Below are positions 26,885-57,864 of a stretch of 64,000 bases of DNA, one piece after another. Source of the stretch: Candidatus Levyibacteriota bacterium. Its GTDB lineage: Bacteria; Patescibacteriota; Microgenomatia; Levybacterales; UBA12049. The notes beneath the pieces were generated by a model, which saw nothing but the letters and a program-made list of their open reading frames with translations, made no database searches and had not been told where the DNA came from. The translations under genes were made by a program, and so were the position numbers. Within the stretch, counting starts at the first letter, position 1; every line of letters begins with the position of its first letter. The stretch spans positions 123,878 through 187,877 of the forward strand of contig CAVRKE010000002.1 of assembly GCA_963722305.1 (NCBI GenBank), read 5' to 3'.

Positions 26885-29800
26885 CTAAGACTTTGTGAAC
26901 TCTGCCCAGGATTTTATCGCAATTTTGTTTAAATCTTTTTCGCCAATCGCTTTGACGAATAGTTCTGCTTTTTGTAAGTTTGTAAATAGCGGAATATTCT
27001 GGTCAACGGCGAAACGTCTGATGTAATAATCATCATCAATGTCTTTTTTTAAATTTGTGTCGGTGATATTAATTGCCATATCGACTTTGGCTTTCTGAAA
27101 GTACTCGAGAATGTTTGGCGATTTTTCCTCATGAATTTTATAAAGCATTTTTGTTTTTACACCATTTTTATTTAGATACGCCGCAGTTTTTTCCGTAGCG
27201 TATAATGGTAAACTGAGGCGTAGCAGAAGTCTTGCGCTCTCCAAAAACTTAATTTTATTTTCATCACCGGAAAGACTAATAAAAATTCCTACTTTAGGAA
27301 TTCTTCCACCGACGCTTAGCTCCGCCAGTAAAAAGGCTTCCTCAACATCATTGCCAAAACAAGCCACTTCTCCGGTTGAGGCCATTTCAACGTCCAACAC
27401 CGGATCTGCTCCGAAAAGCCTGGCAAAAGAAAATTGGGCAACTTTGGAGGCGACAAAATCATAATCCAAAGCGTTAATATTGACTGTTTTTATTTGCTTT
27501 CCGAACATTACATCTGCTGCCATCTTAATTAAATTAACGCCTGTCACTTTGGAAATAAACGGAAAAGTACGGGAAGAACGAAGGTTAACTTCAATCACCG
27601 AAACGTCGTTATCCCGCGCGAGGCATTGCATATTAAACGGTCCGGTAATGCTCAAGGCTTTTGCCAGAGCTACTGTAATCTTTTTTAATCTGCGCTGAGT
27701 CTCGCCATATAATTTTTGCGGCGGGAAAACAATTGAGGCATCACCCGAATGGACACCGGCGTTTTCGACGTGTTCGGAAATGACAAACACTTTTACTTCA
27801 CCTTTTTCCGCTACCGCATCGACTTCTATTTCTTTAGCATTTTCGATAAATTTAGAAACAGTTACGGGATGCTCTTTGGAAATCGCTGTTGACATAAGAT
27901 AATTTTTTAAGTCGTCCTTTGTCCGGCAGACCTTCATATTACTACCCGACAAAACATAGGAAGGACGGATCAGCACCGGAAAGCCGACGCTTTGGCTAAA
28001 ACTAAGCACTTCAGAAAGTTTAGTGAATTTACTCCAGGCCGGCTGAGAAATTTCTAACGAATCCAAAAGTGCCGAAAATTTTCGTCTGTCTTCCGCTTTA
28101 TCAATATCGTTTGGATGGGTTCCGAGAATTTTACAGCCGTAATCTTTTAAAGCTTTCGCCCGGTTGTTCGGCGTTTGTCCTCCAACCGAAACAATTATTC
28201 CGTACGGATTTTCAAATTCATAAATATCGGTTATCCTTTCAAAGGTCAACTCTTCAAAATACAGCCTGTCGGAAATATCATAATCGGTGGAAACAGTTTC
28301 GGGATTACAGTTAACAACAATCGTTTTTTTCTTATTTTCCTTGACCGCAATTACCGTATTCACACAAGTCCAATCAAATTCTACCGATGAACCGATGCGG
28401 TATGGCCCGGAACCAAGTACAATCACACCGCCATCGGCAAATTTCTCAACGTCATGATGGCTTCCTCCGTAAGTCAAATAAAGGTAATTTGTTTTGGCGG
28501 GAAATTCACCTGCCAAAGTATCTATCGAAAAAACAGACGGCAAAATACCATATTGCTTCCTTAAGGTTCTGATCTCAAGTCCTCTTTTTCCAACTAATGA
28601 ACCAATCCTTTTGTCCGAAAAGCCAAGAATCTTTAATTTGAGAAGATTTTCTTTTTCAAGTTTTTTTGTTGCCAACAATTGCTTTTCCTGCGCCACAATA
28701 TTTTTAATTCTGTATAAAAACCAGGGGTCAATTCCGGTCAAGGAATAAATTTCTTCAACTGGAACATTTTCATAGAAAGCCTTGGCGATGGCAAACATTC
28801 TGTTTGGCGTGGGCCGCCGGAGTAAGGCTTTCGTGTCTTTTTTGCTATTCTCGTTTTTAAAAATATTTTCATCGACCGCTCCCTCGAAATCCAAATCCAA
28901 CATGCGAATGGCTTTTTGGTAGGCTTCTTCAAAACATCTGCCAATCCCCATCACTTCGCCTACTGACTTCATGCTGCTGCCGATTTCCTCTTGGGCACCC
29001 TTAAACTTGTTGATATCCCATCTGGGAATTTTTACGGTCACATAATCAAGCGCCGGCTCAAAACAGGATTGAGTGACTTTTGTAACTTTATTCTCCAGCT
29101 CTGTCAAGCTTTTGCCAAGCGCCAGTTTCGCCGCGACATACGCCAGCGGATAACCGGTGGCCTTGCTGGCTAGCGCCGAACTCCGGGAAAGACGGGGGTT
29201 AAGCTCAATGACATAATATTCCAAAGCGCCGGTTGAAGGATTCGTCTGCCCGCCATCAGCTTTCGCTTCAGGCGATTGCGGGCGGGGGTTTAAAGCAAAC
29301 TGGACATTGCATTCCCCAACCACATTTAAACTGCGGACAATTTGGATTGAGACTGAACGGAGTGTGTGGTATTCGTAATCTGTCAGAGTTTGGCTTGGAG
29401 CAATGACAATTGACTCCCCGGTGTGAATTCCCAAAGGGTCCATATTTTCCATGTTACAAACCGTAATGCAGTTATCGAATTTATCCCTGACCACTTCGTA
29501 TTCAACTTCTTTATAGTGATGTAAATATTTTTCAATCAGGATTTGCGAAACAAAAGAAAAGGCAACGTTGGCAATATTTTTTAATTCTTCCTCATTTTGC
29601 GCAATTCCCGACCCCTGCCCGCCCAGGGCAAATCCCGACCTCACCATTACCGGAAAACCTAACTCTCTGGCGATTTTGAGCGCTTCTTTCTGGTTTTCCG
29701 CGGCCCGGCTTTTGGGAGTTGAAATTCCTTGTACTCTTAAATGGTCGGCGAATTTTTGCCTGTCCTCCGAAAGAATTATGGTGCTTATCGGACTGCCTAA

Positions 29801-30136
29801 TATTTCAACCTTGTATTTTTTGAGTATTCCTTTTTTATAAAGCGACAGTCCGCAGTTTAAGGCGGTTTGTCCGCCAAAAGAAAGGAAAATTCCGTCTGGC
29901 CTTTCTTTGGCAATAATTTTTTCGACAAAAAAATCGTTGATGGGCAAAAAATAGACCGTATCGGCAAGATAATCTGAAGTTTGGATGGTGGCAATATTCG
30001 GATTGACCAAAACCGTTTTTATCCCTTCTTCTTTTAAGGCTTTTATCGCCTGAGAACCGGAATAGTCAAATTCTCCGGCTTCGCCGATTTTTAAAGCTCC
30101 CGAGCCTAAAACTAGCACTTTTTTTATATTCTTCAT
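26885..30136 (-). CDS. carB: Carbamoyl-phosphate synthase large subunit
   Basis: Two ATP-grasp halves and a C-terminal MGS-like domain. Start refined to MKNIKKVLVLGSG (30136). Confidence 0.95.
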   Translation of the reverse strand: MKNIKKVLVLGSGALKIGEAGEFDYSGSQAIKALKEEGIKTVLVNPNIATIQTSDYLADTVYFLPINDFFVEKIIAKERPDGIFLSFGGQTALNCGLSLYKKGILKKYKVEILGSPISTIILSEDRQKFADHLRVQGISTPKSRAAENQKEALKIARELGFPVMVRSGFALGGQGSGIAQNEEELKNIANVAFSFVSQILIEKYLHHYKEVEYEVVRDKFDNCITVCNMENMDPLGIHTGESIVIAPSQTLTDYEYHTLRSVSIQIVRSLNVVGECNVQFALNPRPQSPEAKADGGQTNPSTGALEYYVIELNPRLSRSSALASKATGYPLAYVAAKLALGKSLTELENKVTKVTQSCFEPALDYVTVKIPRWDINKFKGAQEEIGSSMKSVGEVMGIGRCFEEAYQKAIRMLDLDFEGAVDENIFKNENSKKDTKALLRRPTPNRMFAIAKAFYENVPVEEIYSLTGIDPWFLYRIKNIVAQEKQLLATKKLEKENLLKLKILGFSDKRIGSLVGKRGLEIRTLRKQYGILPSVFSIDTLAGEFPAKTNYLYLTYGGSHHDVEKFADGGVIVLGSGPYRIGSSVEFDWTCVNTVIAVKENKKKTIVVNCNPETVSTDYDISDRLYFEELTFERITDIYEFENPYGIIVSVGGQTPNNRAKALKDYGCKILGTHPNDIDKAEDRRKFSALLDSLEISQPAWSKFTKLSEVLSFSQSVGFPVLIRPSYVLSGSNMKVCRTKDDLKNYLMSTAISKEHPVTVSKFIENAKEIEVDAVAEKGEVKVFVISEHVENAGVHSGDASIVFPPQKLYGETQRRLKKITVALAKALSITGPFNMQCLARDNDVSVIEVNLRSSRTFPFISKVTGVNLIKMAADVMFGKQIKTVNINALDYDFVASKVAQFSFARLFGADPVLDVEMASTGEVACFGNDVEEAFLLAELSVGGRIPKVGIFISLSGDENKIKFLESARLLLRLSLPLYATEKTAAYLNKNGVKTKMLYKIHEEKSPNILEYFQKAKVDMAINITDTNLKKDIDDDYYIRRFAVDQNIPLFTNLQKAELFVKAIGEKDLNKIAIKSWAEFTKS
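29246..29288. repeat. GC-rich palindromic in-frame insertion element (copy 1) inside carB
   Basis: ctgcccgccatcagctttcgcttcaggcgattgcgggcggggg. Encodes RPQSPEAKADGGQT, replacing the canonical KNGRL. About 85% identical to the copy in kbl. Confidence 0.7.
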
Positions 30137-30137
30137 A

Positions 30138-30785
30138 TTATTTATTTTTATACCAAACTGCCCATGCCCATTTACCAAACATCATGTTTATTTTTGAATT
30201 ACTAGCATAAGGGCCAAAAATTTCTTCAAGTTCTTCTTTTGTATAATAATTTTTAATAACTTTGTATTTTTTATCGCCAACCTTTCTTATTCTGAATGTG
30301 TCCTTACCTTTCTTAATCAACTCCGCATTTTCCTCATGTAAAACATTGTCGCAAAGAAAAACCATCGAATCACTTTTCAAAACTCGATGAAATTCTTTTA
30401 GAAATTTTGTGATGTCCTTTCTTAGAATGTGAGAAAACCAAAAACAGGCAACTCCACCAGTAAAAGAATTATTTTTATAGTAAAGTTTATTTGCGTCTGC
30501 GATTTCAAAATCAACAGGACACAAATACTTTTTCGATTTAGCTAACTCAAGAACTTCCTGAACTGCATCTGTTGCCTTAATTGTTTTAGCGACTTTTGAA
30601 ATAATACCTGTCCAATAACCAGTACCGCAGGCTATCTCAATTATTTCCTTTTGTTTGAATAACTTTATTAAAATTGTATCTATCTTTTTGGCATCTTCGA
30701 TTCTGCCTGGTTCGTTTCGGAAATACATACTTTTGTCGTATTCCGGCGCCCTATCTTTATAATAAGTCTTAATATTCGTTATCAT
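30138..30785 (-). CDS. Class I SAM-dependent methyltransferase inserted between carA and carB
   Basis: SAM motif IEIACGTGYWT. 4-nt overlap with carA and 1-nt spacing to carB. Confidence 0.7.
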   Translation of the reverse strand: MITNIKTYYKDRAPEYDKSMYFRNEPGRIEDAKKIDTILIKLFKQKEIIEIACGTGYWTGIISKVAKTIKATDAVQEVLELAKSKKYLCPVDFEIADANKLYYKNNSFTGGVACFWFSHILRKDITKFLKEFHRVLKSDSMVFLCDNVLHEENAELIKKGKDTFRIRKVGDKKYKVIKNYYTKEELEEIFGPYASNSKINMMFGKWAWAVWYKNK

Positions 30786-41887: not shown

Positions 41888-43123
41888 TTATAGCACTTTT
41901 AGTTCTTTTGCCACTTTTTTAAACGCAGCAATACCAATGTCTAAATCTTTTTTGGAATGGGCAGCCGACGGAATAACTCTAATTCTTGCTTTCCCCTTGG
42001 CAACCATTGGAAAAACTATCGGTGTTGCAAATACATTTTCTTCGAAAAGTTTAGCACTGAACTGCTTGGCTAATTCCTCATCTCCAAGCATTACGGGAGT
42101 AATCGGACTTTCCGGATGTCCCGTATCAAAACCCAAGTCTCCGAATCTTTCCCTAAGATACTTTGTATTATCCCACAGTTTTTTAACCAGGGCATCGGAT
42201 TCGAGTAAAATATTGATTGCCTCCAAAGCTGCGGCCGTATCCGGAATTGTTAAGGCGATTGAAAAGAGTCTCTGTCTTGCCTTTAGATTATAATAATCAA
42301 TTAAACTTTTGCGGCCGGCAATAAATCCACCGATGACGGAAAATGCTTTAGAAAGACTACCAATTTCTATATCAATTTTTCCCACCAAATCAAAATGGTC
42401 AACCACGCCTCTTCCACCTCGTCCCATAACTCCCTCACCATGAGCATCATCTACCATCGTTAGTGCGCCGTATTGTTTAGCAAACTTGACAATTTCAGGA
42501 AGCGGGGCCAGATCGCCGTCCATCGAAAAAACACCGTCAGTGACGATAAGAACCGTTGGCATTTGTCCGTCTAATTTTGCCTGCCCGCCATCGCTACGCT
42601 CAGGCGCTTGCGGGCGGGGCGTTTTTGCTAATTGGGAAGCTTCCTTTAATTTTTCTTCCAAATCATTTGCGTCTCCATGTTTATAAATGAATTTGTTTTT
42701 TACACCGGAAAGTCTCACCGCGTCGATAATCGACGCGTGATTTAGTTCATCTGAAATAACAATGTCTTCTTTGCCAATAATTGTTTGTATTGCCGCCGCA
42801 TTTGCCATATAGGCGCTGGAAAAAACAACTGAGGCTTCGGTGCCCTTAAATTTGGCGATTGCTTCTTCAAGCTGAAGGTGAAGGGTGTGGGTTCCGGCCA
42901 GAGTCCGGTAACCCGTTCCTAAACCGTATTCGGCAATTGCCTCTTGTGCGGCTTTTTTGAGTCTTTCGTCTTCAGCCAATCCCAGATAATGACTGGAACA
43001 AAAATTTAATTTTTTAACGCCACCGATTGTTAAATACGCTCCCTGTCCGGATTCAATCACTCTGGGACTGGCACCTGATTTTATCGCTTCTTCCAGTTGT
43101 TTGTAAAAATCGGCTACATTCAT
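41888..43123 (-). CDS. kbl: 2-amino-3-ketobutyrate CoA ligase (glycine C-acetyltransferase)
   Basis: PLP class-II aminotransferase motifs (SLSKAFSVIGG). Adjacent to tdh. Confidence 0.8.
   Translation of the reverse strand: MNVADFYKQLEEAIKSGASPRVIESGQGAYLTIGGVKKLNFCSSHYLGLAEDERLKKAAQEAIAEYGLGTGYRTLAGTHTLHLQLEEAIAKFKGTEASVVFSSAYMANAAAIQTIIGKEDIVISDELNHASIIDAVRLSGVKNKFIYKHGDANDLEEKLKEASQLAKTPRPQAPERSDGGQAKLDGQMPTVLIVTDGVFSMDGDLAPLPEIVKFAKQYGALTMVDDAHGEGVMGRGGRGVVDHFDLVGKIDIEIGSLSKAFSVIGGFIAGRKSLIDYYNLKARQRLFSIALTIPDTAAALEAINILLESDALVKKLWDNTKYLRERFGDLGFDTGHPESPITPVMLGDEELAKQFSAKLFEENVFATPIVFPMVAKGKARIRVIPSAAHSKKDLDIGIAAFKKVAKELKVL
42582..42622. repeat. GC-rich palindromic in-frame insertion element (copy 2) inside kbl
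   Basis: ctgcccgccatcgctacgctcaggcgcttgcgggcggggcg. Encodes KTPRPQAPERSDGGQAKLDG, which is absent from canonical Kbl. Confidence 0.7.
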
Positions 43124-57408: not shown

Positions 57409-57488
57409 CAAGATACCTAAAGATTAGCCTCAAAATGACCTCAGAATTGGAAATTCAGCCTAATTTTTGCTAAAATACCAATGACCTT

Positions 57489-57829
57489 CGGAAGGAGAGT
57501 CACTACCCCGCCTTGGCGGGGAGGAAAGTCCAGACAGGATTAAAGCCGGGGACGGAACATAAGTTCCGACTAGTGATAGCTAGTGTCCCGATTTTTTACC
57601 CACATGTGAAATCGGGAACAGATTCTGAATTGACAGAATCTGAGAATAACAGAGACGAGTGGGAGTGAAACGGATAATCCTACCTGCTGTAACCTTTGAC
57701 AGATGCGTTACCACTCTGCTTTAGAGGAGCATCGAAAAAAGGGCATCCTGGTTAGAACAGGACGAAACGACCAATTATCGTATCGAGATAGATTGTGATT
57801 AGAACAGAATCTGGCTTACCACCTTCCGT
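57489..57829 (+). ncRNA. rnpB: RNase P RNA (bacterial type A-like)
   Basis: P4 halves GAGGAAAGTCCAGAC and ACAGAATCTGGCTTAC. P1 pairing GGAAGG/CCTTCC. Located in a 480-nt ORF-free gap. Confidence 0.8.
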
Positions 57830-57864
57830 CGGTCACAAATTTCGAAAATCGCAAATATTGAGGC

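Follow-up and report, generated by a model that had tools for sequence, protein, structure and literature searches.

Two housekeeping genes, carB and kbl, in a 64-kb stretch of a Patescibacteria-type genome (Candidatus Levyibacteriota bacterium, contig CAVRKE010000002.1, positions 123,878 to 187,877; the whole stretch analysed is called the window hereafter) each carry an in-frame copy of one G+C-rich imperfect palindrome, encoding the peptide PRPQSPEAKADGGQ in carB and PRPQAPERSDGGQ in kbl. The palindrome belongs to a family of hairpin units of 38–50 nucleotides (nt) that recurs across several phyla, mostly between genes, and that is apparently undescribed so far. We consider it likely that carB and kbl hold copies of a very small, non-autonomous selfish repeat that forms a hairpin, is mobilised in trans and is tolerated in surface loops. 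The genes and copies are the following.

26885..30136, minus strand: carB, carbamoyl-phosphate synthase (CPS) large subunit, intact, hosts copy 1; E=1e-66 to 1e-76 against solved CPS structures
29245..29286, plus strand (antisense to carB): hairpin copy 1, 42 nt, TCTGCCCGCCATC-AGCTTTCGCT-TCAGGCG-AT-TGCGGGCGGG; family profile E=1.7e-8
41888..43123, minus strand: kbl, 2-amino-3-ketobutyrate CoA ligase (glycine C-acetyltransferase), intact, 411 amino acids (aa), hosts copy 2
42580..42618, plus strand (antisense to kbl): hairpin copy 2, 39 nt, CCTGCCCGCCATC-GCTACGC-TCAGGCG-C-TTGCGGGCGGG; family profile E=2e-10

Filled and empty sites in carB and kbl

The window is a stretch of housekeeping genes with about 40% G+C, of a kind typical for Patescibacteria (Pfam on 63 open reading frames, ORFs), and its nearest homologues carry Patescibacteria names. 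Within it, a sequence-only reading had singled out a GC-rich 43-nt segment of carB, CTGCCCGCCATCAGCTTTCGCTTCAGGCGATTGCGGGCGGGGG, and a near-identical segment in kbl, which it took for a palindromic element inserted in frame into essential enzymes, expecting a surface loop in CarB. The carB segment is present at 29246–29288 as quoted and the kbl segment is real, with 30 of 32 positions alike outside the central 7–10 nt; the inverted arms (GCCCGCC.../...GGCGGGC) are present as well. G+C content is about 74% in the kbl copy and about 65% in the carB copy (hand count), compared with 40% in the window. Dinucleotide-preserving shuffles of the window gave an expectation of 0 matches, against 1 observed for the 43-mer and 2 for the 20-mer TCAGGCGNTTGCGGGCGGGG, and nhmmer with the family profile (E≤10) found no third copy in the 64 kb.

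Translation of carB across the insert reads FALNP-RPQSPEAKADGGQT-NPSTGALEYYVIELNPR, the insert itself being (P)RPQSPEAKADGGQT, while kbl reads KTP-RPQAPERSDGGQA-KLDGQ with (P)RPQAPERSDGGQA as the insert; a predicted peptide across the junction would be, for example, ADGGQTNPSTGALEYYVIELNPR, and the added loops comprise 13–14 residues. Solved CarB and CPS1 structures are 16–18 residues shorter at the insertion point, where the E. coli protein has FAVNPKNGRLIVIEMNPR. Similarly, solved Kbl structures and orthologues of 398 aa, the usual length in relatives of the 411-aa window protein, lack RPQAPERSDGGQA. The mechanically called carB ORF (26885–30178, minus strand, 1097 codons) opens at a TTG at 30178, and the ATG at 30136 is the likely start.

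Alignment with orthologues established that both segments are insertions. The two CarB proteins closest to that of the window have FALNP-NPKSGELEYY (89% identical) and FALNP-NPKNGQLEYF (85% identical) at this place, none of the best 120 CarB homologues has the insert, and the 13 residues are missing from the closest Kbl relative (87–90% identical). In the DNA, contigs L120 and L121 have the empty carB site GCTCTAAATC^CAAATCC (AAATC^CAAATCC), to which the window adds exactly 42 nt at 29245–29286, so that the G+C-rich insert proposed earlier stands with its start corrected by 1 nt and its end by 2. The empty kbl site in contig L122 is AAGACTC^CTAAATC (AAGACTC^CTAAATCAGAC), and here the window adds exactly 39 nt, which are the palindrome CCCGCCCGCAAGCGCCTGAGCGTAGCGATGGCGGGCAGG. 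No flank bases are doubled at either empty site; relative to these orthologous sites, both segments are clean insertions. In the contigs of the closest relatives, secA and carB are broken into several called genes (L120 3916–5850 and 10001–13211; L121 212–2712 and 3888–7099), which are probably indel errors of long-read assemblies and not real pseudogenes; CarB matches of about 485 aa occur because carB is split there.

The expectation of a surface loop agrees with AlphaFold models of both proteins. In the Kbl model the insert is predicted as coil between helix 152–165 and strand 191–195, with a block pLDDT (predicted local distance difference test) of 57–67, and in the model of the N-terminal half of CarB it is predicted as coil between strands 274–282 and 307–313, with stretches below pLDDT 50. 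This low-confidence coil between regular secondary-structure elements suggests that both inserts form disordered surface loops. The same CarB loop (NVQFALNP...EYYVIE) contains three other, unrelated hairpin-forming in-frame inserts of 60–90 nt in other Patescibacteria (genes at L271 994–2397, L272 1123–2721 and L273 3001–4813; predicted folds −31 to −35 kcal/mol), with the peptides NVILSEAKNL...PQDDKG, NVTLRQAQGDK...SLTNHDR and PTSLPPPFSSPYGRGRLGRG, and in several further homologues of CarB and Kbl the same loops are occupied by repeat-like peptides of other kinds. Both loops accept insertions readily, and these genomes habitually carry palindromic inserts in frame.

The hairpin unit and its family

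We scanned three collections with a two-arm pattern: one genome per species, metagenomes and IMG/VR viral contigs, the latter two with a looser pattern. The first scan returned 118 stretches, of which about 29 low-G+C loci contain the hairpin unit, pattern matches in loci above about 57% G+C being excluded as chance matches. The metagenomes supplied at least 120 further stretches and IMG/VR another 25, about half of them family members (for example on L248, L258, L269 and L270), and these two scans brought in the dominant sediment variant ...TCAGGCGAGGCGGGCGGG. With near-identical flanks removed, 117–142 distinct copies remain among the matches listed. The further copies anticipated by the sequence-only reading therefore exist in public genomes and metagenomes, both between and within genes. 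Named hosts are Woese-, Gottesman-, Magasanik- and Uhrbacteria, Paceibacterota, Saccharibacteria, unclassified Patescibacteria, Desulfobacterota and a few others. Most copies are intergenic, many of them 20–150 nt from gene ends, and about 8% of the distinct copies (142 considered) lie within long ORFs; a fetched locus usually has 1 copy.

Alignment of these copies defines the unit as CCTGCCCGCC - ATC - [variable mini-hairpin] - TCAGGCG - N1-3 - GCGGGCGGG. Its G+C-rich outer stem of 9–10 bp pairs CCTGCCCGC(C) with (G)GCGGGCGGG and includes one constant T·G position, with C-G in its place in about 20% of copies. The blocks ATC (5' side) and TCAGGCG (3' side) are constant and largely unpaired, a constancy imposed in part by the search patterns, TCAGGCG having been free in the first scan. 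In contrast, the palindromic central segment occurs in 54 different sequences of 6–19 nt, such as GCAAGC-ATGA-GCTTGC, GTCCGCC-TGA-GGCGGAC, AGC-TTTC-GCT and GCG-AGC-CGC, and at least 12 distinct stems of at least 3 bp identify it as a co-varying hairpin. The mean terminal stem in this segment is 2.74 bp compared with 0.42 bp in shuffles, none of 1000 shuffles reaching the observed value, and whole units fold more stably than shuffles as either DNA or RNA (z −2 to −4.5).

The ends of the unit are sharp. Conservation is 79–98% within CCT-GCCCGCC...GCGGGC-GGG and drops to the background level one base further out on both sides, placing the ends of the element exactly where the empty sites, an independent source, place the limits of the inserts. 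The flanks contain no conserved target motif: they are at background beyond −3/+3, with a weak purine preference at −4 only. The TC^C.AAATC likeness of the carB and kbl sites was considered as a target rule and rejected since it does not generalise to other copies. An intrinsic terminator was likewise rejected, there being no T-run past the hairpin in the flanks, and hammerhead-like CUGA/GAAA strings in the carB copy were dismissed by inspection because other copies do not keep them.

Several copies occupy unusual surroundings. Five of 117 distinct copies (L175, L194, L197, L213 and L267) lie, exactly at the unit boundary, in tandem heptanucleotide arrays such as ATTGTTG x3 [element] ATTGTTG, compared with 0.3% of control positions, and the empty carB site, GGATTTG|GATTTAG, resembles such arrays. 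In L189 (1783–1911 and 6881–7009), L199, L222 and L251 the core hairpin lies within a longer repeat of 80–130 nt or adjoins other hairpins, a second hairpin following it in L189, and L242 has two inverted copies about 260 nt apart (568–598 and 860–890). In six sediment contigs (L128, L131, L142, L159, L179 and L239) the element forms the tip of an inverted repeat longer than itself, NNNNNTTTCC-element-GGAYGAAANNNNN, whose sequence varies by locus while its complementarity is kept; the arrangement gives the impression that the element entered the loop of a different hairpin.

Genes outside carB and kbl that host copies encode a PolX-family polymerase, UvrC, ScpB (near the C-terminus), an intein-bearing protein, a hybrid histidine kinase and a glycosyltransferase; the ends of two in-ORF copies, in L143 and L181, differ slightly, leaving their lengths ambiguous. 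In a Candidatus Uhrbacteria contig (L118 3–2120, minus strand), the in-frame copy ARPQAPEAQADGGQ lies just past EGTHNFVAGH, a motif resembling the C-terminal one of inteins, and the Intein_splicing match of the long ORF concerned is weak (30 bits, under the Pfam cut-off). Relative to the canonical orientation, 10 of 12 in-ORF copies are antisense and 2 are sense, all ORFs of at least 400 aa having antisense copies. In these antisense copies the mRNA reads CCCGCCCGC...GGCGGGCAG and the encoded peptide follows xRPQ..(PE)...DGGQ. Intergenic copies between co-directional genes exhibit the same bias (27 vs 8, p=0.002), indicating that selection of frames with a tolerable peptide does not by itself explain the asymmetry.

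Gene neighbourhoods were compared across 145 loci of 1–15 kb, and all-against-all clustering of 659 neighbouring ORFs revealed no recurrent gene family beside the element. In one group of identical IMG/VR contigs, a phage-integrase-family gene (L269 3164–4297) lies 21 nt from an element that sits between ATTGTTG repeats. Rfam 15 contains no family for the element, either in the window at the gathering threshold or in the surroundings of two copies at E≤10. Insert peptides joined into an 81-aa query gave 95 candidates in a database of 5.8 billion proteins, 0 of them at E≤10, and no published description was found in full-text literature, literal sequence strings included.

The kbl site is occupied in a patchy manner. 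The same extra residues in unrelated lineages had been proposed as a sign of ancestry, and in the literal sense they do occur, since the codon concerned holds the insert in five other Kbl lineages as well (P0140, P0142, P0144/P0148 and P0164). Yet each carrier has closer relatives (77–87% identical) without the insert, while most carrier pairs are 73–81% identical, and on every one of 30 bootstrap neighbour-joining trees parsimony requires 5 or more gains or losses. Furthermore, the element DNA is identical at 38–39 of 39 positions among the window, L123 (10505–10544) and L124 (10498–10538), whereas the rest of the gene is 69–72% identical (P about 1e-5 to 1e-6); one Kbl clade has decayed copies (RLQTPELSNGGQ). 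The patchy distribution, together with element identity above gene identity, argues against simple ancestry of the insert. These observations fit either repeated insertion from a conserved master sequence or an old insertion under nucleotide-level constraint with many precise losses, and either reading calls for an exact enzymatic process.

Mobility, constraint and other explanations

For a selfish repeat of this kind, we envisage that an enzyme encoded elsewhere would copy or move the element in trans as a folded single strand. Entry into DNA would be seamless, without target-site duplication and with little sequence preference in the flanks, and it would be strand-specific, such that the CCCGCCC...CAGG strand would usually coincide with the sense strand of the genes nearby. 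The majority of insertions would be kept between genes, and a filtered subset would survive within them: those with a length that is a multiple of three, in a solvent-exposed loop, and in an orientation and frame giving a hydrophilic peptide rich in Pro, Gly, Gln, Glu and Asp (xRPQ..PE...DGGQ). The carB and kbl inserts would then be translated as extra disordered loops that the enzymes do not require for function, and their presence would presumably be neutral for the host.

Several points weigh against this proposal. The case for mobility is a comparative one, built from sequences. Direct repeats of at least 6 nt flank 22 of 119 copies compared with 3.5 expected, and although their offsets vary and both verified empty sites show none, this enrichment is awkward for insertion without duplication. 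Copy density is low, with 2 copies per 64 kb in the window and mostly single copies elsewhere. Pfam analysis of the 63 window ORFs identified no transposase, HUH or RAYT (REP-associated tyrosine transposase; REP, repetitive extragenic palindrome) protein, recombinase or other candidate enzyme, and none recurs near the 145 loci, where hosts and neighbours are housekeeping genes. Refilling of one kbl site fits poorly with flanks that have no target motif and needs either a targeting rule or frequent precise excision. Finally, a protein-binding or RNA motif that benefits the host could instead account for the unpaired ATC and TCAGGCG, which do not vary, and for the near-identity of copies across phyla.

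The most attractive specific idea, as yet unproven, is a version of the selfish-repeat reading in which the element would be of REP or IS200/IS605 type and would be moved as a single strand by a Y1 HUH transposase (RAYT/TnpA) encoded elsewhere, by 'peel-and-paste' at the replication fork. Insertion at the two verified sites is seamless and duplication-free, and the imperfect hairpin, whose mismatch and unpaired bases are fixed, offers the kind of asymmetry that such enzymes read. Moreover, orientation is biased relative to gene direction, hence probably to replication direction, and precise loss would account for the patchy kbl pattern. However, neither end has a conserved tetra- or pentanucleotide, unlike IS608-type targets; the GTAG/CGTC tag of the REP superfamilies (PMC3733652, abstract) is lacking; no Y1 or RAYT gene lies in the window or beside any of the 145 loci; and the element is a single hairpin, neither a doublet nor two-ended. 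We therefore regard this mechanism as a tentative possibility.

A bolder conjecture, which we think doubtful, is that ATC, TCAGGCG and the T·G position constitute a recognition code for a strand-specific enzyme that would seamlessly insert or excise a cross-phylum hairpin of 38–47 nt and could re-target an exact site, as in kbl. If true, this would be the smallest autonomous-looking mobile unit seen in bacteria. The central mini-hairpin or local DNA features would then set target choice, and the element would be a general engine of protein loop insertions in ultra-small bacteria.

The main alternative to a selfish repeat is a nucleic-acid motif selected by the host, for instance a DNA hairpin bound by a protein, a site at which RNA is stabilised or processed, or a site of translational pausing, that would have been recruited repeatedly and would act at the mRNA or DNA level where it lies within genes. 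Invariance of the unpaired blocks beside a co-varying central stem is a pattern typical of functional RNAs, and identity at 38–39 of 39 positions in genes about 70% identical, in AT-biased genomes, points the same way, as do the orientation bias relative to transcription and the many intergenic copies close to gene ends. Nonetheless, we judge this alternative unlikely. The surroundings of two copies give no Rfam match even at E≤10, the gene neighbourhood is not constant, and close relatives differ in presence and absence of the element without compensating change. In addition, decayed copies are tolerated, copies are scattered over unrelated genes and spacers with no U-tract for termination, and the conserved blocks are partly imposed by the search patterns.

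An ancestral loop extension, kept as a lineage-specific peptide for protein function, would agree with the same 13 residues standing at the same position in Kbl of five other lineages and with their hydrophilic, loop-like character. We consider it very improbable, given that the nearest relatives of each carrier lack the insert, with at least five events on the tree, and that the same DNA occurs in carB, PolX, UvrC and intergenic DNA of other phyla. Conservation of the DNA also goes far beyond what the peptide needs, with 1 difference in 39 nt, and coding for a peptide does not require a palindrome. An assembly or sequencing artefact (a chimeric join or an adapter-like contaminant) can be dismissed for practical purposes, for although short G+C-rich palindromes sometimes arise in libraries, the identical insert-bearing kbl protein is found in NCBI, ENA and Logan, the independently assembled Logan contig L119 has the insert, and copies, varied in sequence and length and in frame, come from hundreds of unrelated assemblies.

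Apart from the element, the window contains a divergent bacterial class A RNase P RNA at 57487–57834 (plus strand), in a 480-nt spacer after a UvrD-like helicase gene. The default Rfam scan of the window reported no RNA because this match (47 bits, E=1.6e-13) scores far below the Rfam gathering score of 100.

Likeness to known elements and wider meaning

The sequence-only reading had compared the element to the Rickettsia palindromic elements (RPEs), which are about 100–150 bp long and occur in Rickettsia genomes (Ogata et al. 2000, via PMC10969869). The comparison holds by analogy. Both are palindromic repeats lying in frame in unrelated housekeeping genes, both add a peptide compatible with the fold, both have intergenic copies, and the mobilisation of both is obscure; in-frame insertion at fold-compatible sites in unrelated genes, characteristic of RPEs, is found here too. 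It does not extend to size, host or location. Units of mostly 38–47 nt (38–50 nt over the whole family, 42 and 39 nt for the two inserts) fall well short of the RPE length of about 150 bp, and RPEs are confined to Rickettsia, whereas this family occurs in Patescibacteria, Desulfobacterota and other phyla. In their original description from R. conorii, close to half of the RPEs lay within ORFs (PMC10969869), compared with about 8% here, most copies being intergenic. As far as a comparison by description goes, nothing points to relatedness in sequence.

GC clusters of yeast mitochondria offer a second parallel; they include copies inserted in frame in var1 as well as the 'byp' inserts of Magnusiomyces, which are bypassed (PMC8811140). 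As in the present family, the genome is A+T-rich and the palindromes are short and G+C-rich; most lie between genes and a few stand in frame within coding regions (PMC8811140), the loops or centres change fast while the stems stay, and the mobilising mechanism is obscure. They differ in being mitochondrial and in having terminal AG/TAG repeats taken as target duplications, of which the two verified sites have none. Translational bypass of the Magnusiomyces type is not indicated here because the inserts are open and in frame.

Among bacterial elements, REPs and the related bacterial interspersed mosaic elements (BIMEs) share with this family an imperfect G+C-rich palindrome of 20–40 nt, conserved asymmetries and a strand bias (PMC3733652). 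In place of the GTAG/CGTC tag of REPs, the ends here are CCTGCCC... and ...GGGCGGG. Moreover, the family is not strictly extragenic and has a low density, its copies are single units save for the inverted pair in L242, and no RAYT was found among the 63 window ORFs or the 659 neighbouring ORFs. MITEs, short for miniature inverted-repeat transposable elements, likewise are non-autonomous, with terminal inverted repeats and occasional in-frame fusions (PMC10969869). The present element is smaller than a usual MITE and shows no target-site duplication at the verified sites, and a parent insertion sequence with the same ends was not seen in the 145 loci. The IS200/IS605 group shares duplication-free insertion, but its conserved target of 4–5 nt is absent here. 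The best-supported placement, by analogy, is that the element acts like RPEs and yeast mitochondrial GC clusters and belongs to neither.

Patescibacteria proteins are known for unexplained extra segments. The carB and kbl case suggests one concrete source of such segments, namely short selfish hairpins that settle in surface loops and would be translated. With at least four unrelated hairpin families in the same CarB loop in different lineages, the phenomenon looks general and affects annotation, structure prediction and alignment. The sharp ends, fixed unpaired bases, co-varying core, cross-phylum spread and footprint-free entry of the element provide handles for finding what may be a new strand-specific DNA-handling enzyme, and the refilled kbl site allows targeted insertion and precise excision to be tested directly against each other.

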